Shown here piece by piece: positions 432 to 60,900 of a stretch of 64,000 nt of DNA. Within the stretch, counting starts at the first letter, position 1; the number at the start of each line of letters is the position of its first letter. Below the pieces are notes generated by a model. That model made no database searches, had not been told where the DNA came from, and saw only the letters and a program-made list of their open reading frames with translations. This DNA is from Octopus vulgaris (lineage: Eukaryota): positions 69,812,001-69,876,000 of the forward strand of contig OX597822.1 of NCBI GenBank assembly GCA_951406725.2, in the 5' to 3' direction. Both the position numbers and the translations under genes were made by a program.

Positions 432-716
432 TATTACGGGTGAAGGCCTGTTTATAAGGTTACCCTGGGTTTCTCACCATAAAGAGTATCTTTATGGTGT
501 ATCATCAGACTTGTTGACCTATGGCCTCTTTAACGTATGGAGACGGAAACGAACTGGATATAAAGCTGATGACCACCAGAAGAGGGAGATAACCCCATTC
601 TCTCTATCAGGTTGGTTTCCTCCTCCATATTTTAAAGAGGCCATAGGCCAACAAGCCTTAGGGTCTGGTTGGCAAGAAATCCAGAGTAATCCTATAAACA
701 GGCCTTCACCAGTAAT

Positions 717-717
<1 letters not shown>
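432..717. repeat. Degenerate fold-back inverted repeat next to (TA)n
   Basis: tattacgggtgaaggcctgtttata (432-) pairs with tataaacaggccttcaccagtaata (-717). cttgttgacctatggcctctttaa pairs with ttaaagaggccataggccaacaag. Confidence 0.8.
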
Positions 718-749
<32 letters not shown>

Positions 750-840
750 GATATATATACATATACATATGGAAGTCATCTAAAAGTCCATAAGTCTAGA
801 AAAAGATGCATTAGTATATCTGTCAATAGAGTAGGTATAT

Positions 841-1059
841 TAATCCGAAATGTACAGTATTATATATCCATCATGGCTGATCTTGCCAATTGGTTTCATG
901 CTATGAAATAAGGCACCATATTTTATTCCATATCGGCTACCTCTGATGAGCATAGGATTATATAATTGGATTGTTACCTAACACTCTGTTGTACCACTAG
1001 TGCAAAACCAGTTGGTAAGATCAGCTATGATGGATATATAATACTGTACATTTGGGATA
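841..1059 (+). repeat. Inverted repeat (~57-bp arms) enclosing a degenerate hammerhead motif
   Basis: Arms are 841-897 and 1004-1059. CTGATGA lies at 943-949, with GCA...TGC as stem II and AAAAC-CAGTTG-GTA after it. The inverted arm preserves GAAACCAATTGG. Confidence 0.7.
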
Positions 1060-1070
1060 ATATATATATA

Positions 1071-1951
1071 CAGGGTGTGGTAAATAGACTGTTGTCTAAA
1101 TTACACAAAAATGAAACTAACACTGACATCTCATTTTAACCAAAAATACATAAAAATACCTTGAAATACTAAAGAGTAAATTTATTCAATAAAATCACCA
1201 TTGGCTTCAACCACAGCCTCCAGATGACTTTGGAATCTCCTGCAGCTCTTCTTGACAGTCTCCTTATTTATTTAAGTTGGTCAATGCTGCCATAATCCTT
1301 GCCTTCAGTTCATCTTTGGTGTTACAAGGAGTTTTGTTGGTCTCTCGCTCAACTGTGCCCCACACATAATAATCAAGAGGTTGCAGTCCGGGGTATTATA
1401 TAACCAAATGTTAGGGGTGATGTGGTTGCAGAAATTGTCTGACAGCCATGACTGGGTTCCCCTGCTTATGTAGCATGATGCAGAGTCCTGTTGCCAGACA
1501 TTAGGGTCTTCCAGCAGTGACCCTCTTGACCCAGGACAGCACTACCTCTTTCAGGCACCTTATGTAGGCCTCTGTGTTAAGTCTGCGGCTGTATGGGAAG
1601 ATGGAGGCATAATGTCGCCATCACTAGTAATTACTCCGAACACCATGGTGTTGACCGGATGTTTGATTTTTATCACTCTTAGTACATGTCTTCAGATTGC
1701 ACTATCCTCAGATTGACACCCAGACACGCTGAAATGCTCACACTGGAGCTTCTGGTGTGAATGCCAAGCAGTACAGCATGTCATTTCCAAATTTCTGGCA
1801 GAGTGAATCGCATCATGGTGCTGTTTTTCTCACAGATGGTGCCCAACTAACCCTACTATAGTGTGTAGTTGACAAAATCAAAAACAATGCATATGTGCAA
1901 AATTAAAAATATAAAATGGCGACAGTTTACCCATCACACCTGGTATGTATG
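1071..1951 (-). mobile_element. Tc1/mariner-superfamily DD37D (maT-type) transposon remnant
   Basis: TA-flanked CAGGGTGTGG... terminus. Disrupted minus-strand transposase fragments: WQQDSA...WLSDNF..HITPNIW...DCNxLDYYVWG..ERETNKTPCNTKDELKARIM. Confidence 0.8.
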
Positions 1952-2029
1952 TGTGTATACACACACACATATATGTATACCCATATGCATACATAACATA
2001 TCTATACCTTACATGCACACACACACACA

Positions 2030-2275
2030 CCCATGCATACTTGATGGCTGCAGCTTGATTTTAAACAATGCCATCACTTTATGGTTCTTGTAGACACAGG
2101 CAGGAGAGATATGGCTGTTCAATCCTGCAAGGGGCCTAACTCTTTAGATGTGGCAATGGGGGATGCTTCTTGCTTCAGGCATTCAGAGATCTTACCTCCT
2201 ACACTGACATATTTTCATTCCATCATGGAATTTTTTACCGAGTGTTTTGCCTTTCTTGCCTATGGCCAGCCATAG
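2030..2275 (-). repeat. Deleted LINE-derived dispersed repeat (second copy at 31720-31960, +)
   Basis: The reverse complement aligns by eye to 31720-31960 and includes an RT-like fragment KFHGGMKACV. Confidence 0.55.
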
Positions 2276-2745
2276 TACGCAACATATAATAGACATGTTA
2301 AAAATCACATGATGTCTATGCTTGTAGTGTTTTAAAGTGACAGAAGGCCTTGCACAGGACAATCCCATTCTTTAAACACTATACGTATTTGCCCCAAAGA
2401 GAAAACTAGGTGACATCATTGGATGCAAACAAAGTCACAAGTGTTACTTCAGAATCTTTTGTCCAAACAAAGACCAGTAGTTAGATGGCCATTGAGTTCA
2501 TCTGCCCTTTAACAGGTCTTGTTTCTCGTTTTGCAGGATATCTAATGAAAACCATCCTCCTTACCAAGAAGGTTTAGTTGCTGATAGCTCAACCATGCAA
2601 CATAATGTATCGGGTTACATGTTACTAGTAGCACTAAAATTGACCTTACATACATACATACATACATTCAATATGTGACCATGTGTGTATCGTTGGCGAT
2701 TTTTTTCCTCCATCTTCCCTTCTTTGGATCTTTCCCTTTTCTATG

Positions 2746-2778
2746 TTTCTGACAAAGAGCTCCGCTCGAAACATTAAA
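2746..2778 (+). ncRNA. Degenerate minimal hammerhead motif (Penelope-type)
   Basis: TTT-CTGACAA-A-GAGC-TCC-GCTC-GAAAC-AT-TAAA. Two G>A changes at CpG sites would restore CTGACGA and GAAACGT. Confidence 0.55.
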
Positions 2779-3417
2779 TCCTCCTTCTTTCTTTCCTTTC
2801 CTGAGCATCCAATAACACTATACTTGTTCCACGTCCTTGCGTTTTCTCTTTGTGTTTTCATGTTTGGATTAACTATACATACATACATACATCATCGTCA
2901 TAATCGTCATTTAATATCTGTTTTCCATACTAGTATGGGTTGGAGGATTTGATAGGATTTAGTGAGCTGCAAGGCCACATTAATCTCCGATGTCTGCTTT
3001 GGCAGAGTCTCTGTTGCTGGATGCTCTTCCTAATGCCAACCACTTTACAGAGGGGATTTTTCATGTCACTGGCACTAGTGAGACAGAAATTTACAAGGCA
3101 GAAAAATAACAGGGAAAAAAAAGAAAAAGATCCCACTCATAAGCAGGAGTATTTGGGAGGTGAAGGTGGAGGAGGATGGCTTTCGCCAGGTATTGAAAGG
3201 CTAAAGTATAATAGCAGGACAAATACAGGTGTCTTGTTGCAGAGGAGATGCATGGCTGGAGGAAAAAATGGAGGCTAGATAAAAGGAAGTTGTGATGGGG
3301 CAAATTCTCAAGGTACAAAAGGGTGAGCATAAGAGAAAACACAGACAGTGGTTCATGAGAAGGGATGAGAGAGTGAATACTTTCATAAGAGGGTGAATGG
3401 AGAGTAACAGATAATTA

Positions 3418-3815: not shown

Positions 3816-5024
3816 AAAATAATTTAAAAAAAAAAGATTCAGTAAGACATTTAATTTTTTTCAGCTCTCATGTTAATTCTTTACAGTTTTGTGTGATTTG
3901 TTATAAAAATATTATCAGATTCAATAAGAGGTTTCATCTTTTCCCTTTCCATGTTCATTAATTTTTATCTTTTTATTGAGGGTTAAACAATTTTTTTTTG
4001 TTGAAGGAGATAACCAAAAGTACCGATATTTCTCATAAAAAGTGGCGAGATAACCCAATTTTTTAATGGGGGTGAGATAACCAAAAAGGTACCCATCCTT
4101 CTAGCTAGGTTGGTCATTATAAAAACCGAATTCTGTACACACACACACACACCAGTTATCAGCAAGCAGTGACCAGTTAGACACATAGCTAGAGATGGGC
4201 AAGCAGTGACCGTCGACACAATACCGTAGCAGTTGCATATCACGGACAGACGAGACAGAAAAACAGCACAACCCGACCAAATGACAAACGCACACACAGA
4301 CACATAAGATGTCTTATACTATCTCGTCACATAAACATTCTCTTTCCTCTGTTTTCACTTCGCCGACTCGAAGAAGTTGGTAACTTCATGTAGCAGCATA
4401 TTTATCCGTTTTTTTTTTTTCAAATCAAACTTTCTGTATCCAACACGTAAATGCAACTGTTAACCAAATAAATTATGAAAACTGCATTCCTGTTCTTTGT
4501 CGTGTTTTCCTTTGATGTCGGTCCAACACGCCTATCTTCATCTGTTGCACACGACAACGTACATTGAACCATCAACAACATGACATTTCGCTACACATTC
4601 CGCTACAGTCTTCTTGTTTTCTCTTCTGCTGCCTCAACAAGGTTTGAAAACTGCTAAAGACATGTCATGAAGACATCCCTACAACACCATCAAGTTGAGG
4701 CCCCTAGGCAAAGCATATATATATGTATGTGTGTACGTGTGTAATATATATGTGCATATATATCTTTTATCCTTGTTTCAGTTACTGGACTGTGGTCCAG
4801 CTGAGGCACTGCCTTGAAAGATTTTACTCAAACAAATTAACCCTACCCACCTTTTTTTTTTAAAGTCTAGTACTCGTTCTATTGGTCCTTTTCGTCAAAC
4901 CGCTGGTTTTGGGGACTTAAACCAACACTAATTGACAAGTGCCGTGTGTGAGAGGTCAAACATAGACACGAAGACGCACACAAACAAATAAGATCAAATG
5001 TAATGAATCTTTAGTTAATGTTTG

Positions 5025-5276
5025 GGATCTTTTCCTTTTGAACGGCAGTTTTCAACACAATTTCTAGTTAACTAAACACTATGGACGTATTTGATTGGTT
5101 AAAATTGCCGAAATGCTCGAAATTAAAGTCGAAATATGTTACAACATATAGAATTTTCTCAATAAAGCCAAGAAAAAATGATGTTTTATAAACACATTTT
5201 ACCAGTATACGAAGTTTAAAAGTGTTTAGTTAACTAGAAATTGTGTTGAAAACTACCGTTCAAAAGGAAAAGACCC
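5025..5276. mobile_element. MITE with ~55-bp TIRs and 8-bp TSD (Merlin-like termini)
   Basis: TIR ggatcttttccttttgaacggcagttttcaacacaatttctagttaactaaacact with its inverse at 5221-5276. TSD AATGTTTG at 5017-5024 and 5277-5284. Confidence 0.8.
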
Positions 5277-6040
5277 AATGTTTGTGTGTGTATGCATATA
5301 TGTATGTATGTGGCGGGCTTCCACACAGTTTCTATCTACCAAACTTACTAACAAGGCATTTGTCGACCAAGGGCTATAGTAGCCGACACCTAAGATGCCG
5401 CATAGTGGGGGGATGAACATGAAACAACGTAGTTACAAAGTGAACTGCGTTAATATTTAACTACAGTGGCATCAATTAAAATGATGCATGTTACACACTA
5501 CACTGTGTCACGCTGAATCTGCCTGGACATTTACGTTAAGAGCGTACATGCCTATCAAATGCTCAGCCGTTCACACGTTGATTCAGGAGCAAGTATTTCC
5601 GCTGATCGAACAATACTAACCGCCGAAACAGACAGAGTTCACACACACACAAAATCTCCCATTGATAAATCTTAACCAAATGAAAAACGTTAGCTAATTT
5701 ACAAGCACTAATCCTTAGTCATTAGTGTAATTTTTTCTAGCACGTGTACATAATTTACATTGACACCGGTTCCAGCGCTGCGCATATTTATAACTTCGTA
5801 ACTATTCCCTCGTGGTTTGTGTCTATTAATAAAGTATCACATAGGATAATTATGAATGAAAAAGTAAATTATATTTTATGTATGAAACTTTTTCACTCTA
5901 AACACTATCAAAATAGTTTCTTATGAAACTATTTATTTTGTTTTATAAAATTACCCAGAAGTCCATTTATATATGGCCAGAACCTGCCAGTTGCGACAAG
6001 TTGTGGTAAACTTTTGATTTTATTTCTGTTATCCGACAAC

Positions 6041-7675
6041 ATGGATGGACAGTTCGACGACGCCGTAGATGATACATCAGAGCCTATTCTACAAGAAAAA
6101 TTCGAAAAGGAAGTTTACAGCAGTTCTTCAAGTGAAGAAAATGAAGAGTCTTCAGATGATTACGACGATGATCTGAGTTTTGAATGGACCAACATGTCTG
6201 GAAATTTCACTAAGAGATATAACACTGCCATGTCAGGCGGACCAACGAATTCACATCAAACAGCGTCACAGAGTAAAAATACGAAGGAGTCTTATCAGCC
6301 TCTTGACAAAGTTCTTAAAAATGTTCTTGATTTGAAGATGAAAACCACGAAATACGAAGGTCCATCTAATTGTTTTTTTAGTAAATCGGAAAGGAAAGCC
6401 GAAGCGGAACGCCTTCGAGGAAAAGACAAGTCTGAGCGAGCCACTTCAGAACAAGCTCTTGATCCACGGACTCGGATGATAATTTTTAAATTACTAGGTC
6501 GTGGTGTAATATATAATATCAACGGTTGTATTAGCACTGGCAAGGAGGCCAATGTTTACCATGCCACCGGAAAAGACGATTTTGATATCGCTGTAAAAAT
6601 TTACAAAACTTCGATTTTGGTCTTTAAAGATCGAGACAAATACGTCTCGGGTGAATATAGATTTCGACATGGATATTGCAAACGGAATCCCAGAAAGATG
6701 GTCAAAACATGGGCTGAGAAAGAAATGCGAAATCTCCAAAGAATACATCAGTCTGGTATTTTGTGTCCGAAACCTATTCTGTTACGAAGTCATGTTTTCC
6801 TAATGGAGTTTATCGGAAAAGACGGCTGGCCAGCACCTTTGCTACACGAAGCTGTCTTAACAGAATCAAAAGCTCGTGAGTTGTATCTTGATTGTATTTT
6901 AATGATGAGAACATTGTATCATGAATGTCGGTTAGTTCACGCTGATCTAAGTGAATTCAACATGTTGTTTCACGAAGGGAAAATCTATTTGATCGATGTT
7001 TCTCAATCGGTCGAACACGACCACCCTAACGCATTGTTTTTCTTGCGTAAAGACTGTACAAATGTGACGGACTTTTTCCGTAAACATTCCGTTTGTGGTT
7101 TAACTGTGAAGGAATTATTCGATTTTGTCACTGATTCTTCTATAACAGACACAAACGTGGACGATTATCTAGATAAGGCTATGACCATTACTGCTGGGAG
7201 AACTTTGGAAGAAATTACGCAACAAGACAAAGTAGACGAGGAAGTGTTTAAGAAGATTTTTATCCCAAGAAATCTTGATGAAGTTGTTAATTTTGAACGC
7301 GATATTTTAAATGCTAAGAAAGGAGACACAGAACAGGTGTACTATCAGACAGTTGTTGGTCAAAAACCAGATTTAAGCGGACCACAAAAAGAACCATTAT
7401 TACTTGAGAAACAAAATGATGAAACTGGTTCTGCAGAGGAGTCTGCAGAAAACTCTGACCAAACAGATGATAGCGGACAAGATAGTGATGATGAAAACGA
7501 AGATAGTGGTAAGAACGTTGAAGGAAATATTCACCATAGAGCCAGGAACGAGTCACCCAATAGTCGCAAGAACCGTAAAAAATTAGTGAAAGAAGCTAAA
7601 CAAAAGTCAAGAAGTCAAAAAATCCCAAAGCATGTAAAAAAACGCAAAGAGAAGTTAGCAAAGACAAAACGTTAA
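6041..7675 (+). CDS. RIOK1: Serine/threonine-protein kinase RIO1, single coding exon (544 aa)
   Basis: Uninterrupted ORF from ATG 6041 (MDGQFDDA, matching the conserved GQFDDA N-terminus). RIO1 motifs include [75 protein letters not shown] and [12 protein letters not shown], plus a basic C-tail [12 protein letters not shown]. Confidence 0.97.
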
Positions 7676-10215: not shown

Positions 10216-10299
10216 CAATTGTTCTTCAAGGGCATTAAATCAACTGAATCAAAAGAGTGCTGTCCCTTTATGTTGTGACTTCAAAAACTCAGAAAGTCA

Positions 10300-10497
10300 T
10301 TACGCCAATAACAATACACGCACAGATCAATTACAATTCTTTATTGTTAGTCATTTGGCTAAATATCTAATTAATCGATCGTTAACAAAAGACTGATTGT
10401 TTAACCTGCACAAGCTATCGATTAATTGATTAGATATTTAACTAATTGATTAACAATAAAGAATTCAAATTGATCTGTGCAATTGTTATTGGTGTAA
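10300..10497. repeat. Imperfect fold-back inverted repeat
   Basis: ttacgccaataacaat...gcacagatcaatt...aattctttattgtta...taaatatctaat is mirrored by attagatattta...taacaataaagaatt...aattgatctgtgc.attgttattggtgtaa. Confidence 0.8.
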
Positions 10498-11324
10498 TAA
10501 TTCTCCCAAGGCCCAACAAAATTTATTTCAATACGCGAATACAGATCAAGAATCTTTGAAGCCAAATACAAAAACGAAGTGAATAAGATAGTCAAAGTTA
10601 GAAATTATAATTATTGCTTAATTGAACTATGACATCTATTTGCCAGTTTTTATAAACATTTCTTTTTCTTATGAAGGACATCTTTATGCAAAATGCAGAT
10701 GGAACGTTACACAAACACTCTTAATATCTTAGGCTGGCTTTTGAATCGGAAGTAATTGGCCAAATATACTACCTGTTTGATGCCAACTACAGGGTTAAGA
10801 GCTGATTCAATTATCTAACCGTCTTCATACATTGTGAGCCATTAGAAGGTAGTCTACATGGTTGCTGAACCTGTTGGAAATAGCTGTTGAATCTCCATCA
10901 AATCTTACCCCAACATCTTAAAAAAAAAAGTGATGGTCATGGCTGAAACGCCTTTGATCATAGATCTACTCTATCGGAATTGAGCTGTAGTCATAGCTGA
11001 AACGCCTTTGTTCATAGATCTGCTCTGGGAAATAAACAAGTCTTACTAATTTTTGCAGAAATCCAGCAATTTGAGGGGAAAGATTTGGTTGATTACATCA
11101 ACCCCCAGTACTTTTATTGACCCTGAAAGGATGAAAAGTAAAGTCAGCTTTGATAGAATTTGAACTCAGCATAAAAATCCAGAAGAAATGCTGCTAAGCA
11201 CTTTATTCGACAAGATTCTGCCAGCTTGCTGCATTAAACGGTTTTCAAATTTTCACACAAGATCAGCAATTCCTAGGATAGTGGGACAGTTTATTATATC
11301 AACTCTAGCGTTCAACAAGTACTT

Positions 11325-11650
11325 CATCATCATCGTCGTTTAACGTCTACTTTCCATGCTGGCATGGGTTGGACGGTTTGACTTGACGGCTGGTCAGCCA
11401 TGAGGCTACACCAGGCTCCAATCCAATCTGGCAATGTTTCTACAGCTGGATGCCCTTCCTAATGCCAGCCACTCCGAGAGTGTAGTGGGTGCTTTTTACA
11501 TGCCACCAGCATGGGACCAATCAGCCAGCACTGGCATTGACCATGCTCAAATGGTGCTTTTTACATGCCGCCAGTCAGGCGGCACTGGCAACAATCATGC
11601 TTGAATGGTGCTTTTTACGTGCCAGCTGCATGGGACCAGTCAGGCAGCAC
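11325..11650 (-). mobile_element. 5'-truncated RTE LINE 3'UTR copy with (GAT)n tail
   Basis: Matches the 3'UTR at 62017-62540 (AAAAGCACC subrepeats, GGAAGGGCATCCAGCTGTAGAAAC, GACGTTAAACGATGATG). Confidence 0.8.
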
Positions 11651-18297: not shown

Positions 18298-18900
18298 ATC
18301 ATCATCATCATCGTCATTATCGTTTAATGTTCGTTTTCCATGCTGGCATGGGTTGGACGGTTTGTCTGAAGACTAGCAAGCCAGGAGGCTGCACCAGGCT
18401 CCAATCTGATCTGGCAATGTTTCTACAACTAGATGCACTTCCTAACACCAACTGCTCCGAGAGTGTAGTGGGTGCTTTTTACATGTCACCAGCACGGGAG
18501 CCAGTTGGGGGCACTGGCATCGACCACATTCAGATGGTGCTTTTTATGTGCCACCAGTCAGGGGGCACTGGCATCAAAGACGTTCGAATGGTGCTTTTTA
18601 TGTGCCACCAGCATGGGAACAAGTCAGGGGCCACTGTGGCATCAACCACGTTCAGATGGTGCTTTTCATGATCCACTGCCACAAAAGCCAGTCAGTGGAT
18701 TCTGGCATCAGCCATGTTTGGATGGTGCTTTTGATGTGCCACTGACATGGGAGCCAGTCAGGGGCAACTGGCATCAACCATGTTCAGATGGTGCTTTTTA
18801 TGTGCCACTGGCACGGGAGCCAGTCAGGAGGCACTGGCACTGACCACATTCGGATATTGCTTTTTACTTGCCACTGGCACAGGAGCCAGTCAGGGGGCAA
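18298..18900 (-). mobile_element. RTE 3'UTR copy with an expanded ~50-bp tandem array
   Basis: About eight repeats of atggtgctttttatgtgccac...ggagccagtcagggggcactggcatc following the (CAT)n tail. Confidence 0.8.
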
Positions 18901-21728: not shown

Positions 21729-21872
21729 ATTATTATTATTCAGGTCACTATCTGGAATCGAACTCGGAATCTTGGGGCTAGTAGCCCGCGCTCTTAACCA
21801 CTACGCCATATGCCTGTAGTGGTTAAGAGCGCGGGCTACTAACCCCAAGATTCCAAGTTCAATTCCAGGCAG

Positions 21873-21908
<36 letters not shown>

Positions 21909-27900: not shown

Positions 27901-28130
27901 ATACAGCTTTACATAGGTCCACATATATTTCAACTGCACCAATTAGTGTCCTTTGCAATTGCAACCCTTCTATAATACTGGTGCAGTTTCTTCAGGGTCT
28001 TTACTTAACATCCTTCAATTTAACTGTTTGAAATTTTCTGTTTATCTACTCTGTGTATTATAGTAGGGTTGCAATTGCAACGGTTACTAATTAGTACAGT
28101 TGAAATGTGTAGGTCTATGTAAAGCTGTAT
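27901..28130. repeat. Fold-back inverted repeat (~75-bp arms) next to (TA)n
   Basis: atacagctttacatagg...ttgcaattgcaaccct pairs with agggttgcaattgcaa...ctatgtaaagctgtat. The minus strand near the apex has acc-CTGAAGA...tatag(t)a-gggt hammerhead remnants. Confidence 0.8.
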
Positions 28131-28194
28131 ATATATATATACATATTTATATATATATATATATTCAAAATAAGCAACAAGAATGACTCCAGTA

Positions 28195-28285
28195 ATTTGG
28201 TACGATTGTTTCGTACTACATCATTTTATTAAATGTTGTAAGTATTACAACAGATTTTAAAATGCTGAGCACTCATCAGCCAATT
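28195..28285 (-). ncRNA. Type I hammerhead ribozyme motif, near-intact
   Basis: Minus strand reads UUGG-CUGAUGA-GUGCU-[extended hairpin including UGUUGUAA/UUACAACA]-AGUAC-GAAAC-AAUC-GUA^-CCAA. All core nucleotides are present. Confidence 0.8.
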
Positions 28286-28435
28286 ATAGAGGTTTTCCAT
28301 TAATACAAAAATTTTCATATCAAGTGGCAACAATTATAGAGAAGGTAGATATATAGACAAAGATGTGGATTTAAATTTTAAGAACATTTGAGGTGGTGGA
28401 GCCCATCAACTGACTGACTAAGATTCAGTTGTTCC

Positions 28436-29893: not shown

Positions 29894-30944
29894 CTGAAAA
29901 AGAAAACCAAAAGGAGAAGAAATATGGACCATTATAAAGAGTAATTGAAACCATGTTCATGTTCACAGTACATAGCTCCTACTGATCATTCTCAACCTTG
30001 TTTCTAAATGTGGGTAGCCATGTAGGTCCTCTACATCGAGAACCTGGTCCTCCTCTTCCCTTCTCTCACAATTTAACCCCTCATCCCCTGGCATAAAGCA
30101 CCCTCTCTCTACAAGCGGTCGTAGTCTTTCAACCTGCATGGCAACCTCAATAGTACTAGTGGCGACCTGGCAGAAACGTTAGCACGCCGGGCGAAATGCT
30201 TAGCGGTTTTCATCTGCTGTTACATTCTGAGTTCAAATTCTGCTGAGGTCGACTTTGCCTTTCATCCTTTCAGGCTTGATAAATTAAGTACCACTGCGGT
30301 CGATGTAATCGACTTAATCCATTTGTCTGTCCTTGTTTGTCCCCTCTGTGTGCAGCCCCTTGTGGACAGTAAGGAAATAATAGTGCTAGTGGCATGATAA
30401 AGCCCCAGTACATGCTGTAAAGTGGTTCATGTCAGGAAGGGAATCTGTCTAGTAACTGTACAAAAGCAGATACTGGAGTATGATGCAGTCGTTAGACCTA
30501 TTGGATCTTGTTGAACCTTCTAACCTATGCCAGCATGGATCATGGACATTAAATGATGATGATAATGATATCACTGGAGTCAATTACTCTGAGATGCTAT
30601 CCACATAAAAAATAACAAATTACTTTTAACATATTTAATGTAGTGATCATCAAATATTTAATTACAAAAGAGGACATTAGCTCAGTGCTAATTTTTCACA
30701 CCAACACTCATTTCACACCTACATAGTAATTCTCTCATCTCTACTTCATTAATTACAGTGAAGCATATATTCCACTGAGAAGGTCTAATAATGATGAAAC
30801 ATGTCGGGAGTTCTCTCCCAAACTTGTCAAAAGGATTACAGTAATACTAGTCTTTAGATTAATGTCTTTTTCACCATCACATAAGTAATTCTAATTAGAT
30901 TTTTAATACTTCATTAATACATTAACAGTAACTTAACTATAATA

Positions 30945-35399: not shown

Positions 35400-35441
35400 A
35401 ATTCAAACCGGTTTTCATCATAATGTGACTTTTCAAGAATT
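35400..35441 (-). ncRNA. Degenerate hammerhead motif next to (TA)n
   Basis: Minus strand reads AAUUC-UUGAAAA-GUCA-CAUUA-UGAU-GAAA-ACCGGU-UU-GAAUU. The stems and palindromic stem III are retained, but the core has two substitutions. Confidence 0.4.
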
Positions 35442-38526: not shown

Positions 38527-38530
<4 letters not shown>

Positions 38531-38648: not shown

Positions 38649-38830
38649 TAATAATAATTATTACCTTTCAAGGTTTTTATTCCCATGCTGGCCACCTGAT
38701 AAGATCGGTATTTAAATAACGATCTTATTCTTATTTATATATGTATGTATGTATATATATATATATATATATAATATAGAAATATTGAGTTTCTAAATCT
38801 CTCGTAGAGAGGTGTAAGGTGGTGGAGCGA

Positions 38831-39227
38831 TATAATGGTTGTATACTGTCAATCTAACAAGAACGTGACAGTAGGGGGTACACCACCGTTATATAGCCCT
38901 AGGAGGCATCAAACGCCTCCTGACAGCTTCGACACATTTTATCCTGTGTCCTTATATACACATACGAAGGGGAGACAAACACCCCCAACCGCCGGAACTG
39001 CATCTAGGGACACCGTGTTTCAGGATGAAGGACAATGATCCTGAAACACGGTGTCCCTAGATGCAGTTCCGGCAGTTGGGGGTGTTTGTCTCCCCTTCGT
39101 ATGTGTATATAAGGACACAGGATAAAATGTGTTGAAGCTGTCAGGAGGCGTTCGATGCCTCCTAGGGCTATATAACGGTGGTGTACCCCCTACTGTCATG
39201 TTCTTGTTAGATTGACAGTATACAACC

Positions 39228-39233
<6 letters not shown>
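38831..39233. repeat. ~400-bp near-perfect palindrome with hammerhead 3' half at the apex
   Basis: Arms are 38831-39026 and 39038-39233, with about four mismatches seen, all transitions at CpG. The apex reads GATGA-AGGA-caatga-TCCT-GAAAC-ACGGT-GTC-CCTAG. Confidence 0.93.
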
Positions 39234-39272
<39 letters not shown>

Positions 39273-39315
39273 ATATATATATTTCATTTTGAATTTGTGT
39301 GAATGAGTATAGAAT

Positions 39316-39577
39316 AATATATCAGTTGAATAAAGTTAAAACATGGTCTGGTTTTCAAGTTTTTTGCTATGGTATTTTAACATTAAAAAAAAATATTTTG
39401 AAATGCTCATAAAGTTAAATTAGCGCTTTCGTACATTTGAAATCTGATGATTACTCTATGTATGAAAGCACTAATTTAACTTTATAGGCATTAAAAACTT
39501 TTTTTTTTAATGTTAAAATACCATAATAAAAAACATGAAAACCAGACCATGTTTTAACTTTATTCAAATGATATATA
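39316..39577 (+). repeat. Fold-back inverted repeat (~120-bp arms) with a minimal hammerhead at the apex
   Basis: Apex 39440-39477 reads AAAT-CTGATGA-TTAC-TCTAT-GTAT-GAAA-GCAC-TA-ATTT. The inverted arm preserves GTAC-GAAA-GCGC-TA-ATTT. Confidence 0.85.
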
Positions 39578-39953
39578 TATGTATATATATGAGGCTTCTT
39601 TCAGTTTCCATCTACCAAATCAACTCACAAGTCTGTGGTCGGCCCAAGGCTGTAGTAAAAGACACCTGCCTAAAGGTGTCACACAGGCTAGATTGAGCCT
39701 TGAACCATGTGATTGGAAAACAAACTTCTTACCACACAACCACTCTCATGTTCAGTTCTATGGAACCAGTCAACAAACTAATCACTGTACATAAAGAACT
39801 TTCCATTACTCCTTCTGATAAATACCTGATGAATCAAAACCTTCAACTTGTCTCTTATTCACCCATCTACTCCCACACTTGTCCTTCATCTTTTTTTATT
39901 AAATTGGTGACAGAACATTTCTTATTCTTAAAGATAGATGCAATGGCACAAAC

Positions 39954-46258: not shown

Positions 46259-46318
<60 letters not shown>

Positions 46319-46412
46319 ATATAGGGAGAATTCATGAAAAAAAACAAAAGACGAAGACAGGTGGTGTAGAAAACAAACAGGTGTATTAGTATAACGCTTG
46401 GGAATTGAAAAA

Positions 46413-46450
46413 GTCTTTTACGTTTCAATCCTATGCTCTTCCACAGAAAG
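46413..46450 (-). ncRNA. Degenerate hammerhead motif related to 2746-2778
   Basis: Minus strand reads UUU-CUGUGGA-A-GAGC-AUAG-GAUU-GAAAC-GU-AAAAG. The element starts right after a (TA)n tract. Confidence 0.35.
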
Positions 46451-52894: not shown

Positions 52895-53544
52895 TATATA
52901 TATATATATATATATTCACCACACCCTGTATATATATGTTGGGCCTCGTGGAGGCAATGACCAAGACCTTAGGCATTATGTGTGCTTGAGAAGAAGACTT
53001 GTCAAGCCAAGCAAAATCACAGTCTTGGCAGATACTGGTGTCATGCTAATTGGTACCCATGCTGGTGGCATGGAAATGCACCCCAGTGTCATGCAAATGG
53101 CACGTAAAAGCACCCATTACACTCTCAGAGTGGTTGGCATTAGGAAGGGTATCCATCCATAGAAAACCATGCTAAATCAGTCTGGAGTCTGAAGCAGCCT
53201 TCCAGCTAACCAGTTCCAGTCAAACCATCTAACCCATGCCAGCATGGTCCATGGATATTGAATGATGATGGTGATGATATATATTAACAAACACTCCATG
53301 AATGATTGAATAAATAAACACCACCATTAATGCCTTTTAAACTGTAGACTATTTTCTCTCTATAAGAATTGTCTAACTTAGTAATATTTATAATTTATTT
53401 TTCTCTGGTTATACGATACTGACGATTCCAAATGAGGATGAACTGGCACCATACATGGCTACCAATGACAGAAAACTTTTAGACCTTTATAATATATGAG
53501 AAAAAGAAACATTAAATATTCTGTGCACCTTTTTCTTTACACAG

Positions 53545-53588
53545 ACACCTGATGAAGGCTCGAGGGTATATCAGCCAAAATGTTGTGT
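53545..53588 (+). ncRNA. Degenerate minimal hammerhead motif
   Basis: ACAC-CTGATGA-A-GGCT-cgagggtatatc-AGCC-AAAAT-GTT-GTGT. Two CpG transitions would restore GAAACGTT. Confidence 0.6.
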
Positions 53589-53641
53589 TAACAACAAACA
53601 AGATGAGAACAATTGCAGCGTGGAAGGTGTTTGTAAGCTGT

Positions 53642-53816
53642 TTAAGAAACACACAAAAGCCGTTCGATTCACTTCAACATTTAAGTTTAATTTGTCAAAA
53701 TATTTTCATCGCTAAAATCCACGACGTGTCAGGTCGCGGATTTTAGCGACGAAAATATTTTGACAAATTAAACTTAAATGTTGAAGTGAATTGAACGGCT
53801 TTTGTGTGTTTCTTAA
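53642..53816. repeat. Near-perfect ~175-bp hairpin
   Basis: ttaagaaacacacaaaagccgttc...tcgctaaaatccacgac-(gtgtcag)-gtcgcggattttagcga...gaacggcttttgtgtgtttcttaa. A single-arm relative lies at 12240-12330. Confidence 0.92.
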
Positions 53817-54164: not shown

Positions 54165-54636
54165 TGTTGCCAGTGCTGCTGCGAGGTCGTTGCCAGTGCC
54201 ACTGCGAGGTCATTGCCAGTGCTGCTGTGAGGTCGTTGCCAGTGCTGCTGCGAAGTCGTTGCCAGTGCTGCTGCAAGGTCGTTGCCAGTGCTGCTGCGAG
54301 GTCGTTGCCAGTGCTGCTGCAAGGTCATTGCCAGTGCCGCTACGAGGTCGTTGCCAGTGCCACTAGACTGGCTCCTGTGCAGGTGGCACATAAAAAGCAC
54401 CATCTGAGCATGACCATTGCCAGTACCGCCTGACTGGCCGCCATGCCGGTGGCACGTAAAAGTATCCACTACACTCTCGGAGTGGTTGGCGTTAGGAAGG
54501 GCATCCAGCTGTAGAAACTCTGCCAGATCAGATTGGAGTCTGGTGTAGCCATCTGGTTTGCCAGACCTCAGTCAAATCATCCAACCCATGCTAGCATGGA
54601 AAGTGGATGTTAAACGACGACGACGATGATGATGAT
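54165..54636 (+). mobile_element. RTE 3'UTR copy headed by a 23-bp tandem array
   Basis: About 8-9 copies of ggtcgttgccagtgctgctgcga (54165-54362), followed by the standard 3'UTR and a (GAT)n tail. Confidence 0.85.
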
Positions 54637-57480
54637 TTGTGACACACTGACTGAGTTATATTGCAAATATGGCTAGACTTGGAAATGTTAGTCATAATGT
54701 AGAAACACACGAATCAGGTCTTAAACCAGCTAAAATATCATTATTTGATTATACAATCATTATTGATGATCATTACAAAGTATTTTCTTGCTCTTCCTGA
54801 CAGAGTTAAATATCTACATTAAATAAATAATAAATGCGCCCTTTTAAAGCCTAGCCAGGCTCATGGGCCTGGTTTCCCATTTTCAATGGTGTATGCGTTC
54901 TCCAGCTGGATGGGACGCCAGGCCATCTCAGCGTTACTCATTTTTGCCAGCTGAGTGGACTGGAGCAACGTGAAATGAAGTGTTTTGCTCAAGAACACAA
55001 TGCGTCGCCCAGTCCAGGAATCGAAACCACAATCTTACTATCATGATGCTGACACCCTAACCACTAAGTCACACGCCTCCACAAATATCTACATTACTTG
55101 TAAAAATTCAGGATTTCATTTTTCAAGAAACAACAATAATACACGATATGTAGTTTGTATATAATACTCTTAACATGATAGAGTGCAATCATTTATGTTT
55201 TAATCATTCAATTCATCACCAGCAGCATTTAATATTTATGTTCTATGCAAATATGGGTTGGACAGTTTGTCAGGATCCAATGGGCCCAAGGACTGCATTG
55301 CACTCCAGTGTCCAGTTTGGTATGGTTTCTATAACTGGATGCGCTTCCCAAGGCCATTCATCTTACAGCATGTGCTGGGTACTTTATCTGTGCCACCAGC
55401 ACCAGTGAGGATATGAAACAGCTTGCAAGACTACAAATCACAAGAAGAGGTAACTTTATGCAAGGAGATAAGGACTAGAGCAGGCTAAAGTATGAGAGAA
55501 AAGGGCCTGAGCAGAATGGGTTTCATTTCCATTTGTTAATCTTGAATCCTGTTTAACCACACCATAATGCTGAGAAGCAATGGAAACATAAAATATGGAA
55601 TAAAAGAATATGGAATACATTGAGGTTTGTTAGGCATAACTCACTGAGTCAAGAGGAAAATGTTTTGCAAATACAATTATTATATCTTTGTGTGAAAACA
55701 TCTAAACTGTCTCAAATTTATACATGAAAATTGTATTTCATAAATAAAAGATGAACTTGAATATTTTTTATGATAAATAAATATATATTTCAGATTTGTT
55801 TTATTTTCATTTATTTTGTTTCCTTTGGAAATGTCGAGTAATTCTGAAAAAGCAATATAACAATGCCAACTAATTTTTTTAAAAATTAAAAGAATTTCAT
55901 AAAATTCCAAAAATAGATCATCATTCAAATATATCTCAAGTGGCTAATTGAATGGAATTCCACAGTTAACTAACTTCATTGAATGTTCACAATATAAGGT
56001 CAAAAGCCTGGATACAAGCTAGTGAAATGGAAGTTTAAGTGCTTGAAGAATCAATAATTATCCAAGCACAAATTTTAATTAAAATACAACTATGCAAGAC
56101 ATTTGATTAAATTCAGTAAAATATTAAATATATACTTTAAATTTTGAATACTCAAAATTCTAATTTTTACAGGAAATAAATTTCAGAAAAAAGTCTTCAC
56201 TTTATATCATTAAACCCATAATTCAAAGGTGGTTCATTGGTGGAATCGTTAGCAAGTCGGACTAAATGTTTCGCGGTATTTCTTCAAGCTTTACTTTTCT
56301 GCATTAGAATTCCGCAATCGACTTTTCCTTTTATCCTTTTGAGGGTTGGTAACCAGTCGAGAACAGAAAAAATTTCAGACTTTGTGCCTATAGTAGAAAG
56401 AATTTTAAATCCACGAACTGCATGTAGAACCTATAAAAGTGTTAAACATTTAAAAAATGTCCTGTTGAGAAAATATTAAAAAATAAGTCAACAACCTGTC
56501 ATTTTCAGATCCTGTACTACGAAATAATAAACTGCAGTGATTAGTCACAAATATCTACAAACATTATTCTCTCTCTCTTATTTTCTTAGTTGTTTCAGTT
56601 ATTTGAATGTGGCCATGTTGGAGCACCGCCTTTAATCGAGCAAATCGACCCCAGAGCTTATTCTTTGTAAGCCTAGTACTTATTCTATCGGTCTCTTTTT
56701 CTGAACTGCTAAGTTACGAGGATGTAAACACACAAGCATCAGTTGTCAAGCGATGATGAGGGGACAAATACATACACACACATACATATATATGTATATA
56801 TACATATACGATGGGCATATTCCAGTTTCTGTCTACCAAATCCACTCACAAGGCTTTGGTCGGCCTGAGGCTATAGTAGAAGACACTTGCCAAAAGTGCC
56901 ACGCAGTAGGACTGAACCCAGGACCATGCGGTTGGTAAGCAAGCTACTTACCACACAGCCACTCCTACGCCTATAGCTACTTACCAAACAGCCACTCCTG
57001 CACCTTGGAACTATACATAATTCTATTGTTAACACATGAGTAATTTTTTAAAAAAGAAAATCGTTCTTTCAAATTGAAGGTGTAGTGACATATTTCAATA
57101 GATTTCTGTGTTGTTGGGAAGGTTATTCCTGAGTTTTTATTCAGTAACATAATCAGTAACCAAAGTATAACTACTTTAATCCTGTTTTCTCCAGTTTTGG
57201 CCTGTTTCCAGGATCTGTGAACTTTGACCCAGTGTCTAAACTGAATACAGATATGCAAAGACATGAGATATATTACACCATATCTGGTGATGGACGCAAT
57301 CAAAAAGAGAAAGGGTAATGCTGAGGAAAACTGGCAAAGGGGCCAGTTTCATGGCCTTGACATGACCTTAACTTCTGAACCTTGTACTCTTTGGTCAATA
57401 ACATCACACACACACAATGTGTGTGTGTGTATATATAACAATACTGTTGTAAGTTGTAAGGTACCGCATGAGTGGAATTA

Positions 57481-57718
57481 TATATAAAAGAAGGTTTGAA
57501 AATGCAATTTTAAAAGATGTTTTCCCAAGATTTTTCCTTGTAAACTGTTTTTAACAAGTTATTATTATCAAAGAATGTATATATGTATTGTAATATTTTG
57601 TGACAACCAGTACTTAACACAATAAAGCTTTTACATGTTACTTTTGACAATCTTTTTCTAAAAAAGTGAAACCGGTCAAGTGAATAAACATCTTTTAAAA
57701 TTGCATTTTCAAACCTTC

Positions 57719-57727
<9 letters not shown>
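57481..57727 (+). repeat. Inverted-repeat element (~40-bp arms) with a degenerate hammerhead
   Basis: aaagaaggtttgaaaatgcaattttaaaagatgttt with its inverse at 57686-57721. Positions 57640-57681 read ACTT-TTGACAA-TCTTTT-tcta-AAAAGT-GAAAC-CG-GTC-AAGT. Confidence 0.75.
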
Positions 57728-57749
<22 letters not shown>

Positions 57750-57755
<6 letters not shown>

Positions 57756-58095
57756 TAATAAATATTAGGGAATAATCCAAACTTACAGGGAAAATCATTT
57801 AGGATTGAATACAATTTTATAATATATATTATATTAAATTAGAATATGGATTTTCTACCTTATAAATTAAAGTTAATATTTAACATTATAGTCGATTTCG
57901 ATATAATCATATTTAATAATAGAGTTTATTATAAGTAAATTATTATTTTAGATTATATAGATTATTTATATCTTAAAAATATTGATTATATTTTAGATTT
58001 TGAAACCACCTGATGAATGTCTGCTACTCAAAAATTTGATGACAGAAGACAGGAAACGATCGTAGTGGATATTAATTATATTTAATAAGGAGTTT
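57750..58095 (+). mobile_element. AT-rich TA-adjacent element carrying a hammerhead (inverted relative at 60415-60900)
   Basis: 57751-57808 is the reverse complement of 60842-60900, and 57931-58016 is the reverse complement of 60416-60501. Confidence 0.75.
58006..58068 (+). ncRNA. Type I hammerhead ribozyme motif, near-intact
   Basis: CCAC-CUGAUGA-(A)UGUCU-24-nt loop-AGACA(G)-GAAAC-GAUC-GUA^-GUGG. Stem III is the palindrome ACGAUCGU. There is an A.G mismatch at the base of stem II. Confidence 0.8.
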
Positions 58096-58247
58096 GGAGA
58101 CTTATACATCCACTATTTTTATTTTACAGTTATATACAGCATATTACAATGACCTGCATGTTTTTCCCCTACAGCAACTGCACATTGTTGTAGATGCAAC
58201 CTGTCAATATTGTCAGTGCACTATTAATATTATTATAAACTCTAGGG

Positions 58248-58890
58248 CAGTGCTACTCAAAGTGGTGGTCTGCGGACTGGTGCCGGTCCGTGAGCCATCA
58301 GCTGCCCGTACATGGCAAGTTTCCAGAAAAGAAAGAAACATTATAAAATGCTTATGTAATATTGTATTATTTGTTTACAAAATAAATATAAGATAAAAAG
58401 AATTGTTAACTTTTCTTATATTCATTATATATATCTCCCCTTTTTGGAAACTTAAGTATACAGAATGTTTGTGTCACGTAGCCAACTAGAAACGGTGTTT
58501 CTTGGGGCTAAAAAACAGTAAAATTCTTCGTTTTCCTGGAACTGCTACATTAAGTTGGTAACAAGCCATCACATTATATATATTGTTTCCAGTATAAATT
58601 AATATACTGTAAACAATATTTCATCTGCCCCTACGTTTTGAGTTCAAATTTCGCCGAAGTCAACTTTGCCTTTCATCCTTTCGGGGTTGATTAAATAAGT
58701 ACCAGTTACTGGGGTCGATATAATTGACTTAATCCATTTGTCTGTCCTTGTTTGTCCTCTCTATGTTTAGCCCCTTGTGGGTAGTAAAGAAATAAGTATA
58801 AATTAATATTACTAAGAAATATTACCAGTCCCTGGCACATTGGAAAAAAAAACTGCTGATATGCCACATCAGATAGTTTAAGAAGCACTG
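58248..58890. mobile_element. hAT (Charlie/Buster-type) non-autonomous element with a nested SINE
   Basis: CAGTGCTACTCAAA ... TTAAGAAGCACTG termini with a perfect 8-bp TSD CTCTAGGG (58240-58247, 58891-58898). Confidence 0.85.
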
Positions 58891-60134
58891 CTCTAGGGAA
58901 CCTTCACAGGCCTGAGTAGGACACACAGAATTACTCAACAGGAGAATTTACGAGTGACTAACAACTCACTGTAAGCACTAGTATTGGATACTGACCGTTG
59001 TGGTCAGCTAGCATCTGGAACCAAACAGAGAACTAACATGGTATTCACCTGGACAATATATCCCTACAAACTCAGCACCATTCGAGTGTGATCGTTACCA
59101 GCATCGCCTTACTGGCACTTGTGCCTGTGCTAGTAGGGTGCCAAGAGCACCATCTGAGCATGATCGTTGCCAGACGGCTATCTTGCTTCCATGTCAGTGG
59201 CACGTAAAAGGCACTATTCACGCGTGATCGTTACCAGCGTCGCCTTACTGGCACCTGTGCCGGTAGCATGTGTAAAAAGATTCAAGCAAAGTTGTTGCCA
59301 GTACTACCTGACTGGCCCCGTGCTGGTGGCATGTAAAAAGCACCCACTACACTCTCGGAGTGGTTGGCATTAGGAAGGGCATCCACCTGTAGAAACACTG
59401 CCAGATCAAGATTGGGGCCTGGTGCAGCCATCTGTCAGTCAAAATCGTCCAATCCATGCTAGCACGGAAAGTGGATGTTAAACAATGATGTATGATGATG
59501 ACGATGATGTATGAGTGTGTGTGTGTATGTATGTGTGCGTGCATACACACACAAATACATATAGGTATATATGTTTACACACATGCACACATAAATACAC
59601 ATGCAGGTACAACATCGATTTTGTGGAACCTTAGGGTCCAAAGCCTTTCTGGATTACTGTTAGCCAGTGGTGGTCACCCTGGCTAACACATTCTAAATTA
59701 AACAAATATTAAATTTACTTAAATAATTAAATGAAGTACAAATACAATAGTACAATGGTATAGATTATACAAGTTTATTAATACTGTAATATGCAAGGTA
59801 CTAGTTTGTGCAACCTACTAGTAAAATAGTCTGGCGGCCACAGGAATTTGAAGTTCTTGTTTGAAAATTAGTGTAGATTATAAGAGGTTCTGGACCATCA
59901 GTCACCAGAAAGTCTGTGTTGTACCTGTATATACAAATACATACACACACCCATATACGCAGTAAAGTGTCAAAATACGTGAGTTATAGATGCCATGTTA
60001 AAATGGCATAAAAAAGAGTCAGGTTATAGCATGATAAGAAGAGCCACAAATAGTTGAAATGAAGAGTGAAAACAAGCTGATGGTTATTTCAAAACAATTC
60101 ATTGTGTACGTTTAAATTATACTATATAGATCAG

Positions 60135-60225
60135 ATGGTGGTGGTGGTGGCGGCGGCAGTGGCAGTGGTGGTGGTGGCGATGGTGGTGGCGGCGGTGATG
60201 GTGGCGGTGGTGGTGGTGGTGCTGA
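60135..60225. repeat. (GGT/GGC)n triplet repeat
   Basis: Directly visible. Confidence 0.9.
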
Positions 60226-60414
60226 TGAAAAATGAAGTTCTTCAAAAGATTATTGAAACGTTTGTAATGAACAGTTTGAAATATCATTAACTTGTATTCA
60301 TTTCAAACATACATACATACACACATATATACATATATATATATATATATATAATAAGATATATATATATATATATATATATTATTTAGATATGTAACAT
60401 CATCATCATCAAAT

Positions 60415-60896
60415 CATCATCAGGTGGTTTCAAAATCTAAAATATAATCAATATTTTTAAGATATAAATAATCTTATAATCTAAAATAATAATTTACTTA
60501 TGCGAAATACTATAATGCTTTATTTATAAGGTAGAAAATCCATATTCTAATATCCATATTATTCTATATCTAATTATATAGATATTTAAAATGACTGATA
60601 TATATAAATTATCAATGAAAATATATATAAATATTATAATCAAGATCTAAAATAATCTCTATAAACAATTGTATATAATGGATGAAATCTGGTAAAATAC
60701 TTATAGAAGTAATATAGTATTAAATAAATACTATAAGTACTATAAACATAATTATGAATGGGAATAATTATCTAATATAGGTTTCTGTCTTCTGTCATCA
60801 AATTTTTGAGTAGCAGGCCCAGATATAAATAATCTGATCTGGCAATCCTAAATCTGATTTTCCCTGTAAGTTTGGATTTATTCCTAATATTTATTA

Positions 60897-60900
<4 letters not shown>
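60415..60900 (-). mobile_element. Rearranged inverted relative of 57750-58095
   Basis: Shared blocks include the hammerhead halves: CCACCTGATGA at 60416-60426 (-) and the stem II/GAAAC block at 60781-60816 (-). Flanked by (TA)n. Confidence 0.7.

Follow-up and report, generated by a model that had tools for sequence, protein, structure and literature searches.

What kind of element has left hammerhead ribozymes (HHRs) scattered over one short stretch of octopus DNA, and does the ribozyme itself shape the fold-backs in which some of them lie? The question is raised by a 64,000-nucleotide stretch of the Octopus vulgaris genome (assembly GCA_951406725.2, contig OX597822.1, positions 69,812,001 to 69,876,000 of the forward strand), called the window below, in which an earlier note had listed 13 hammerhead-like loci and ascribed them to Penelope-like elements (PLEs) or retrozyme-like RNAs that switch template at the ribozyme. 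Our analysis indicates that the loci are very probably insertions truncated at their 5′ end, often inverted head-to-head, from many coding as well as non-coding PLE families, which carry a minimal HHR in their terminal repeat; the insertions were likely written into TA repeats by PLE proteins with a reverse transcriptase (RT) and a GIY-YIG domain. Families are cited by window position, three of them also as A (39024), B (39444) and C (58010).

Hammerhead motifs in the window

Read by eye as stem I, core, stem II, GAAA, palindrome, NUH and stem I, the minimal type I motif was indeed present at all 13 places, and an additional HHR was found on the minus strand at position 508. With its core exact and its stems relaxed, a structure-aware descriptor gave 5 hits in the window, whereas 20 local dinucleotide shuffles averaged 0.2. 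Stricter or core-mismatch settings gave no enrichment (0 vs 0, 0 vs 0.05, 1 vs 0.05, and 2 vs 1.0), so that the excess over shuffled sequence holds for the exact core and the window on its own proves intact motifs only. One of the 5 hits, at 60222, without relative among the loci compared, was set aside as a probable chance motif. The 76 matches at E ≤ 5 from an Rfam scan of the window included no hammerhead, all being microRNA look-alikes driven by repeats; the minimal forms evidently fall below the Rfam models.

Across the 2.8-Gb assembly of 227 contigs, the pattern CTGANGA-N12-30-GAAACGATCGTA was found 681 times, against a single match for its control, and relatives of every window locus occur elsewhere in the genome or in loci taken from it, all of them being dispersed repeat families. 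Outside the core the loci are mutually unrelated, as had been noticed, the sole BLAST hit among 14 loci being the overlap of two adjacent stretches. Stem pairing was tabulated for 13 of 17 family rows (four mis-anchored or deleted rows were dropped) with a best-fit parser that leans towards pairing: 3–4 of 4 positions pair in stem I, 3–4 of 4 in stem II, and the palindrome pairs fully. Stems I–III keep their pairing with differing base-pair types across families, as covarying stems should. Folded singly, two of seven HHRs reached a z-score below −3 and the remainder were weak, with four no better than shuffles, which is expected of dimer-type HHRs. The division of the motifs into intact and decayed needed amendment: the 30775 and 53419 families are truly old and decayed (70–80% identity), while the 35436, 57644, 46446, and 2749 families have fixed variant cores.

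TA targeting and anatomy of the insertions

The TA association held up: a (TA)5+ tract lies within 250 nt of 9 of the 14 HHRs compared to 15.7% of random positions (P = 5e-5). Copies of families A and C were sampled by their 3′-terminal pattern, in the order of the genome, which kept upstream structure from biasing the selection; family C has 1,787 matches in the genome. In family C, 97 of 98 scorable 3′ ends are followed by a (TA)4+ tract, as are 69 of 88 terminal ends in family A, on a background of 3%.

Every family examined shares the same anatomy, consisting of the HHR, 50–200 nt of sequence, one of two 3′ ends and (TA)n, with variable 5′ truncation and inversion. The two alternative 3′ ends lie 30–70 nt apart and bound the optional PLE 'tail'. 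Marks of endonuclease-positive PLEs found here are a pseudo-long terminal repeat (pseudo-LTR) with an HHR, an optional tail, 5′ truncation, and an inverted 5′ copy. This 3′-end anatomy, together with RT/GIY-YIG open reading frames (ORFs) upstream in five families, supports the earlier assignment of the motifs to PLE-type minimal HHRs. The fixed terminal inverted repeats and fixed length of a miniature inverted-repeat transposable element (MITE) or similar DNA transposon were not seen; arm lengths and junctions differ from copy to copy.

Inversions were found in 39 of 58 family A insertions and in 39 of 60 family C insertions. In the window itself, the placement of the loci in inverted repeats stands for 6 of the 14 HHRs (508, 943, 27995, 39024, 39444, and 57644), which lie within a local fold-back, and fails for the other eight. 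About ten other local inverted repeats of the window lack an apical HHR (eight were checked against family copies).

Parent elements with RT and GIY-YIG frames

Two loci elsewhere in the genome, L289 and L290, hold an intact two-ORF PLE in which a 479-aa ORF1 overlaps a 781-aa ORF2 (CGRPNCGIC, RVT_1, GIY-YIG). They lie at G000:C5:1040000-1046000 and C2:202812500-202818500, respectively, and are young; 781-aa frames recur many times in the genome, and the pseudo-LTR HHR of this PLE has a U3-A8 core. A tblastn search with the 781-aa ORF found no PLE ORF in the window, and gave matches upstream of the HHR in longer copies of family B. An RT/GIY-YIG region lies upstream in 7 of 20 relatives of the 35436 family, mostly at 44–62% identity to the 781-aa ORF, and a Hydra-like endonuclease in 4 of 20 relatives of the 27995 family. 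An RT is thereby combined with a C-terminal GIY-YIG in one element for families B, 35436, and C, and more weakly for 27995 and 46446. The CX2-5CxxC linker before GIY-YIG and the optional upstream ORF1 of Neptune elements are present in the 781-aa family, and in B and 35436 by similarity only. As the linker is common to Nematis too, we use the label 'Neptune-like'; clade names here are motif-based and not drawn from an RT phylogeny.

The parent of family C, L442, is 4.9 kb long with an HHR at each end, in the order HHR, tail, ATG, frameshifted RT (YRDD) with a C-terminal endonuclease, 3′ region, exon, intron, and HHR. Its translations, read by eye, carry the Hydra marks given by Craig et al. 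(2021), namely DKT, a CxCX5C linker, and CxxC/CxH around the endonuclease end, with no CCHH, a single ORF, (TA)n, and an HHR; KWK replaces the Hydra RWK. Family C copies are frameshifted, and none of three L442 ORF pieces had a Pfam hit. By these motifs family C would be placed in the Hydra clade. The L442 ORF also has a long Asn/Lys-rich insert in the RT thumb region, resembling the N-rich inserts of Adineta Penelope ORFs.

The earlier view of non-coding, PLE-mobilized or retrozyme-like RNAs is therefore right on mobilization and too broad on coding content, as truncated ends of PLEs that code for ORFs make up 5 of the 14 window families. The search for linked PLE ORFs that it had suggested succeeded for families B, 35436, C, 27995, and, weakly, 46446, and yielded none for 508, 57644, 2749, and A. 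For the 943 family an upstream PLE ORF is doubtful (1 of 20 relatives), and the 30775 and 53419 families gave no PLE ORF hit in 15 copies each.

One-arm tails

Of 28 two-ended inversions in family A, 27 bear the tail on a single arm, and so do all 39 family C pairs, making 66 of 67. Independent choice of the end by each arm would give about half, so this asymmetry suggests twin priming. At the family A junctions (n = 41), 20 overlap by 1–6 nt, 4 are blunt, and 17 have short fillers.

In the Anolis element studied by Frangieh (2024, PMC11167929; here as elsewhere, papers are cited for the portions covered), the PLE protein cuts both strands of AT-rich DNA, two RT start sites bound the tail, and a dimer is predicted. 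We propose that in the octopus a PLE protein, probably a dimer, would cut both strands of a TA tract and prime two cDNAs, one from each internal start site. The cDNA 3′ ends would then be joined head-to-head through 0–6 nt of microhomology or a short filler, giving a fold-back with a tail on one arm. Twin priming with one start site per strand appears to be the simplest reading of these insertions.

Splicing and probable start site of family C

Family C contains a GT-AG intron of ~0.7–1.3 kb that ends ~12 nt before HHR stem I. Among 65 exact exon-1 matches, 52 were precisely spliced and 13 unspliced. An initiator-like site, A[GC]TTCATA, lies ~39 nt upstream of the core, and in 62 distinct stretches none of the 51 spliced copies extends beyond it, while all 11 unspliced copies do. 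An extra non-templated G precedes the site in 11 of the 27 copies not explained by an inverted arm (9 loci), which is suggestive of copying of the cap. Two near-identical multi-kb stretches (L034/L035, G000:C1:8.39 Mb and 8.77 Mb), either a recent segmental duplication or an uncollapsed haplotype, were counted twice in the family C sample.

Since all 51 spliced copies stop at the initiator-like site, they would have been copied from a sense, spliced RNA beginning just upstream of the HHR, with the RT starting only 110–170 nt downstream; the HHR would fill much of the family C template. Such copies sit poorly with the idea of an antisense template for intron retention, at least for family C. 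From the layout of L442, the spliced copies might derive from the cap-proximal 5′ repeat of the transcript and the unspliced ones from its 3′ repeat. The main U3-A8 family, which is linked to a Neptune-like ORF, also has an acceptor-like TTACAG immediately before the core.

Variant cores and the need for cleavage

Genome counts for the 3-8 pair with the stem III word GAAACCGGT were 9,189 for U-A (184 in controls), 605 for C-G (121), 374 for U-G (123), and 335 for C-A (118), giving a covariation odds ratio of ~80 after subtracting controls (hand-computed; copies are not independent). On the ACCGGT scaffold U3-A8 outnumbers C3-G8 ~15:1, and this compensatory pair (UUGANAA) is found in 19 of 20 copies of both the 57644 and the 35436 families. 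The scaffold A-GAGC-N3-6-GCTC-GAAACGT carries CUGUNGA (A6U) 18,988 times, CCGANGA (U4C) 9,315 times, and CUGANGA 5,119 times, with 0 in controls; like the other pattern counts, these score exact matches to scaffolds that were chosen and do not amount to a census, and the copies of one family are not independent of each other. Many of the CUGANGA matches on the GAGC scaffold share the CCG-family loop and may reflect CpG decay. Family A has the U4C core CCGAUGA in 41 of 45 copies. The otherwise invariant U4 and A6 are thus not both kept in family A and the 2749 and 46446 families, and are kept in the other families. In the A6U family (46446), position 7 varies among four subfamilies, and C3, U4, G5, G8, A9, stem II, and GAAAC-GU are fixed. 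Standard CUGANGA descriptors miss most of the HHR-bearing repeats on the scaffolds tested.

The U3-A8 core is known and active (Cervera and de la Pena 2014, PMC4209133). For the two other changes, Perreault (2011) gives a kobs below 0.1 per min for a change of A6 (A6C) and a considerable in vitro drop for U4C. As families with A6U and U4C cores have reached copy numbers in the thousands or tens of thousands, cleavage by the HHR is likely to be weak or dispensable: these cores are predicted to be poor cutters, and self-cleavage may not be needed for spread. Dispensable cleavage would agree with Frangieh (PMC11167929) and Craig (PMC8557442), the alternative being rescue in context. Tentatively, and with somewhat less than even confidence, we propose that the most successful PLE families of this genome have fixed cores that cut poorly (A6U and U4C, as predicted) or are rewired (U3-A8), so that the HHR would serve mainly as a fold or as a protein or splicing signal and not as a nuclease. 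In the same proposal the insertions would also record the PLE cycle, with a dimer priming both strands from two start sites to give fold-backs, priming at the 5′ repeat giving spliced copies that end at the transcription start site (TSS), and priming at the 3′ repeat giving intron-retaining ones. If this is true, cap-proximal versus 3′-repeat priming would explain PLE intron retention without an antisense template.

It is also possible, if on balance not what we expect, that ribozymes with A6U and U4C cores are active, being rescued by the dimer context, distal contacts or the PLE protein, and that cleavage still matters. The fixed neighbors of the free N7 in the A6U family look like continued hammerhead-like constraint, U3-A8 covaries genome-wide, cleavage by the HHR of the Anolis Poseidon element PAc is protein-assisted (PMC11167929), and U4C retains sufficient activity in a viroid in vivo. 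However, besides the in vitro losses for A6C and U4C, 8 of 9 Xenopus retrozyme dimers did not cleave (Li 2026), and the fixed neighbors may be inherited from a few master copies.

Family A, an ORF-less tandem unit

Family A consists of a 364-nt ORF-less unit (362–365 nt) found in circular permutation as monomers to trimers, with a tail that runs back into the unit. Its 28-mer has 911 exact matches in the genome, and the best copies are 99% identical. Folded as a circle, the unit reaches −143.5 kcal/mol (z = −10.8) and forms a long rod tipped by the HHR. By structure, with no ORF and with a type I HHR in every tandem repeat, it would be a non-LTR retrozyme, and it is the only window family shown as an ORF-less tandem retrozyme.

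Diverged relatives of family A were seen at ~4400–4620 of locus L291 and in the flank of L177, one of them with a canonical CUGACGA core, which would put family A within a wider retrozyme group where U4C arose in one branch. A second ORF-less tandem family (L449–L451; G000:C1:20001500-20005500 and others) has 359–360-nt units in at most seven copies with inversion, a canonical CUGACGA core (C3-A8 in one array), and a circular-fold z-score of −1.8 to −4.8. BLAST found no similarity between it and family A.

Could all the loci be independent non-coding retrozymes that replicate as circular RNAs and borrow only the PLE proteins? The permuted 364-nt unit of family A with its very stable fold, the unrelated 359–360-nt family with its canonical core, and the several families without an ORF found would fit this idea, which we nonetheless consider unlikely. 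Five families continue upstream into PLE ORFs, the spliced, TSS-ended copies point to a linear capped RNA, and five 20-copy sets gave one direct repeat only, made of two separate 943-family copies in one locus. Barring circles for other families, the independent-retrozyme reading holds for family A only.

Position of the fold-back junctions

The earlier note had supposed that fold-back synthesis often switches template at the ribozyme, and the end maps of families A and C do not support this. In family A (HHR at unit positions 150–197), 12 of all 5′ ends fall in the HHR where 10.5 are expected; 11 of 82 junction ends lie in the HHR, and 2 of 82 within 3 nt of the cut. The ends are in excess at unit positions 230–270, 30–75 nt downstream of the HHR (33 vs 15 expected, P = 4e-5, for a zone picked post hoc), where a small hairpin and the rod base form the first structure met by the RT. 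In family C, ~25 of 99 arm ends are inside the HHR, at a per-base rate below that just downstream, a region that is AT-rich, with noisy mapping and with ends at +3 to +10 inflated by self-similarity. A sorting of family C arms into classes by regular expression had proved too coarse and was replaced by this end mapping. In a crude mapping of the U4C and A6U families, a cluster of 5′ ends lay 67–84 nt upstream in ~10 of 30 U4C copies, near TCAGT, which is only suggestive.

Family A arms would thus end where the RT stalls at the base of the long HHR-carrying rod, and family C arms where it runs off the RNA 5′ end at the initiator-like site. The HHR would lie near the apex as a result of short templates, without being the switch point.

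That fold-backs arise by template switching at the ribozyme, whether through its cut end or through its fold, seems to us distinctly unlikely. On its side, 5 of the 6 window HHR fold-backs have their junction in or beside the HHR, a pattern that the earlier reader's selection may explain; one end falls in the HHR at 10 of 41 family A junctions; and among 99 family C arms, 7 stop within 6 nt 5′ of the cut, including 2 at the cut itself. However, the rates given above show no hazard peculiar to the HHR, the window has its ~10 fold-backs without apical HHR, and Frangieh (2024) saw no reads ending at the HHR cut, cleavage being unneeded in vitro, in the portions of that study covered.

Some of these results weigh against our own account of the loci as PLE insertions made by twin priming, namely the window junctions and a possible small excess of family C ends at the cut. 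The same is true of the breakpoint map of family B, which was fragmented by divergence and unusable, and of the pattern counts, bound as they are to chosen scaffolds. So too with the parents: a PLE ORF lies upstream in 2 of 30 relatives of the 46446 family at 29–47% identity, a weak link, and a parent ORF was found in 0 of 20 relatives for 508, 0 of 20 for 57644, and 0 of 30 for 2749, and none for family A.

The last alternative, that MITE-like DNA transposons with TA target duplications, or else artifacts of the assembly, account for the fold-backs and the HHR matches are due to chance, is scarcely credible. Short TA-flanked inverted repeats do resemble MITEs, and four of seven single minimal HHRs fold no better than shuffles. 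Against it, 5′ truncation is variable, tails are one-sided, partial copies stand in tandem, the intron is lost precisely, RT ORFs lie upstream, the pattern counts are 681 vs 1 and 18,988 vs 0, and fold-back arms differ by several percent, which refutes it for the tested families; it may hold for HHR-less fold-backs such as 27448-27578.

Other features of the window

Table 1 HHR-bearing features of the window, with positions counted from its first letter.
Feature	Position	Strand	Description
Fold-back, HHR at 456-512 (508 family)	428..721	-	Canonical: CUGAUGA, long stem II, stem III ACCCAGGGU, GUA; one-arm tail
Fold-back, HHR at 939-1022 (943 family)	836..1064	+	CUGAUGA; left-arm tail; GAAA decayed to AAAA in window copy, intact in most relatives
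HHR, very abundant family (2749)	2745..2780	+	Commonest core CCGACGA (U4C); not a fold-back; element ~2646-2885
Fold-back, HHR at 27916-27999 (27995 family)	27901..28130	-	CUGAAGA; 57-nt stem II domain
PLE end, HHR at 28197-28284	28160..28401	-	Near-intact canonical; between two TA tracts; not a fold-back here
Old decayed HHR, low-identity family (30775)	30771..30815	+	
HHR, fixed U3-A8 core (35436 family)	35400..35441	-	UUGAAAA in 19/20 copies; 3′ end of Neptune-like PLE
Family A (39024) fold-back	38776..39234	+	Inverted arm and tail ~38776-39026; forward arm 39024-39234, begins inside HHR core
Family B (39444) fold-back, HHR at 39440-39478	39285..39585	+	Left-arm tail; 3′ end of RT/GIY-YIG-coding PLE
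HHR, fixed A6U core (CUGUNGA; 46446 family)	46415..46450	-	Most abundant family tested; element ~46310-46474
Old decayed HHR family (53419)	53414..53455	+	
Canonical-core HHR	53545..53590	+	GAAA decayed in window copy; PLE-type end split by unrelated fold-back at 53642-53816
Fold-back, U3-A8 HHR at 57640-57681 (57644 family)	57479..57729	+	UUGACAA in 18/20 copies; left-arm tail; young family, 98-100% identity among copies
Family C (58010; Hydra-type PLE by motifs) piece	57753..58083	+	Inverted tail, 3′ part of retained intron ending TTTTAG, intact HHR at 58006-58068
Second family C piece	60417..60899	-	Inverted copy of HHR 5′ flank and intron; forward tail before (TA)n

The region 27901-28490 is apparently nested: the 28279 element lies within a TA tract that splits the 27901-28130 fold-back from what seems to be its own tail at 28472. 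Such nesting suggests that TA tracts serve as repeated landing pads.

HHR-less fold-backs were seen at 53642-53816, 38523-38650, 5022-5278, 10299-10498, 21729-21889, and 27448-27578. The families at 53642, 38523, and 5022 recur elsewhere in the genome, some extended on one side, and could be PLE-type ends that lack an HHR. The fold-back at 21729-21889 has an (AAT)n tail and looks derived from a tRNA or short interspersed element (SINE).

A RIO1-domain frame of 582 aa occupies 5927-7672 (+) in a single uninterrupted stretch (Pfam E = 5.5e-72); it is RIOK1-like and possibly intron-poor or retroposed. A Ser/Thr/Asn-rich frame of 1,132 aa at 23797-27192 (−), with no Pfam hit, is probably a large mucin-like or extracellular exon. 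Tandem arrays with units of 54–66, 23, 129, and 148 nt lie at 11517-11623, 18507-18896, 29159-29278, 54166-54360, 25211-25503, and 63032-63324.

Relation to known systems

PLE pseudo-LTRs were known to carry minimal type I HHRs with a palindromic stem III, in many unrelated families per genome and mostly as single truncated copies, with opposite-strand HHR pairs 100–700 bp apart, a U3-A8 core in ~1,300 Schistosoma copies, and, in Drosophila virilis, an intron whose 3′ end is at helix I (Cervera and de la Pena 2014, PMC4209133). The octopus loci agree with that study in their minimal HHRs, many families, opposite-strand pairs, U3-A8, and an intron end near helix I. They differ in the A6U/U4C cores, in the dominance of U3-A8 on the ACCGGT scaffold, and in the spliced genomic copies. 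Its supplements, as searched, have no octopus row, and the portions covered do not report A6U/U4C cores.

Whether the cephalopod families had already been described, which the earlier note left aside, is answered in part by the supplement of Craig et al. (2021, PMC8557442), which lists Hydra-1_Obim, an Octopus bimaculoides element that has an HHR and (TA)n. The families here share with the Hydra and Neptune clades of that study a C-terminal GIY-YIG, the HHR, (TA)n targets, an inverted 5′-truncated copy, and a tail that is often one-ended. However, the HHR sequence of family C differs from that of Hydra-1_Obim, and family C, at ~4.9 kb with a long 3′ region and a 0.7–1.3-kb intron, contrasts with Hydra elements that are 'generally <3 kb'. 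The one-arm asymmetry of the tail, quantified here, is not in the portions of that paper covered.

Non-LTR retrozymes, tandem units of 200–400 nt that lack an ORF and bear a type I HHR, have been proposed as non-autonomous derivatives of PLEs (PMC7229834; Li, Clavereau and Pollet 2026, bioRxiv 10.64898/2026.07.22.740005). Family A, known here from DNA alone, fits this class, and it adds to the published retrozymes direct marks of PLE insertion (two start sites, inversions, and TA targets) and a minimal U4C HHR. A cephalopod retrozyme is absent from the portions of both papers covered.

The PAc study (PMC11167929) resembles our results in the two internal RT starts that define the tail, in two-strand cutting at AT-rich DNA, in the predicted dimer, and in HHR cleavage being unneeded in vitro. 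The portions covered are silent on the origin of inversions, whereas the octopus one-arm tails tie two start sites to two arms.

In D. virilis Penelope and Adineta PLEs the pseudo-LTR is described as containing an initiator, alongside a short first exon and an intron, retained introns, and pseudo-LTRs in inverted orientation (PMC2377424, PMC3846280), and the initiator, short exon, and intron of family C match the D. virilis layout. The Adineta study proposes self-priming on an antisense template for intron retention and inversions, whereas retrocopies of a spliced sense RNA are common here (52 of 65 exact matches). The 51/51 versus 11/11 split of family C and the 66/67 one-arm tails in two families make PLE intron retention and inverted ends testable, and sister families on one scaffold, with single core-position differences and thousands of copies, do the same for the need for HHR cleavage. 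The ~200-nt HHR pieces are easily filed as SINEs or MITEs, and the main text of the 2026 O. vulgaris repeat annotation (PMC13282606), in the portions covered, does not mention ribozymes.

PLE families dominated by A6U/U4C cores, TSS-ended spliced retrocopies, and a cephalopod retrozyme were not found in the literature searched, which covered few subscription papers. The 2017 work of Lunse et al. on PLE hammerhead dimers reportedly may already hold some variants, and some may already be among the Repbase or Dfam entries. HHR-bearing PLEs, their dimers, TA bias, inversions, one-ended tails, opposite-strand pairs, U3-A8, intron-adjacent HHRs, an octopus Hydra family, and retrozymes as non-autonomous PLEs are, as far as the sources were covered, already in print. 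Overall, the feature is real and belongs to a known kind of system, in whose octopus families core variants occur and the priming and splicing of PLEs can still be read.

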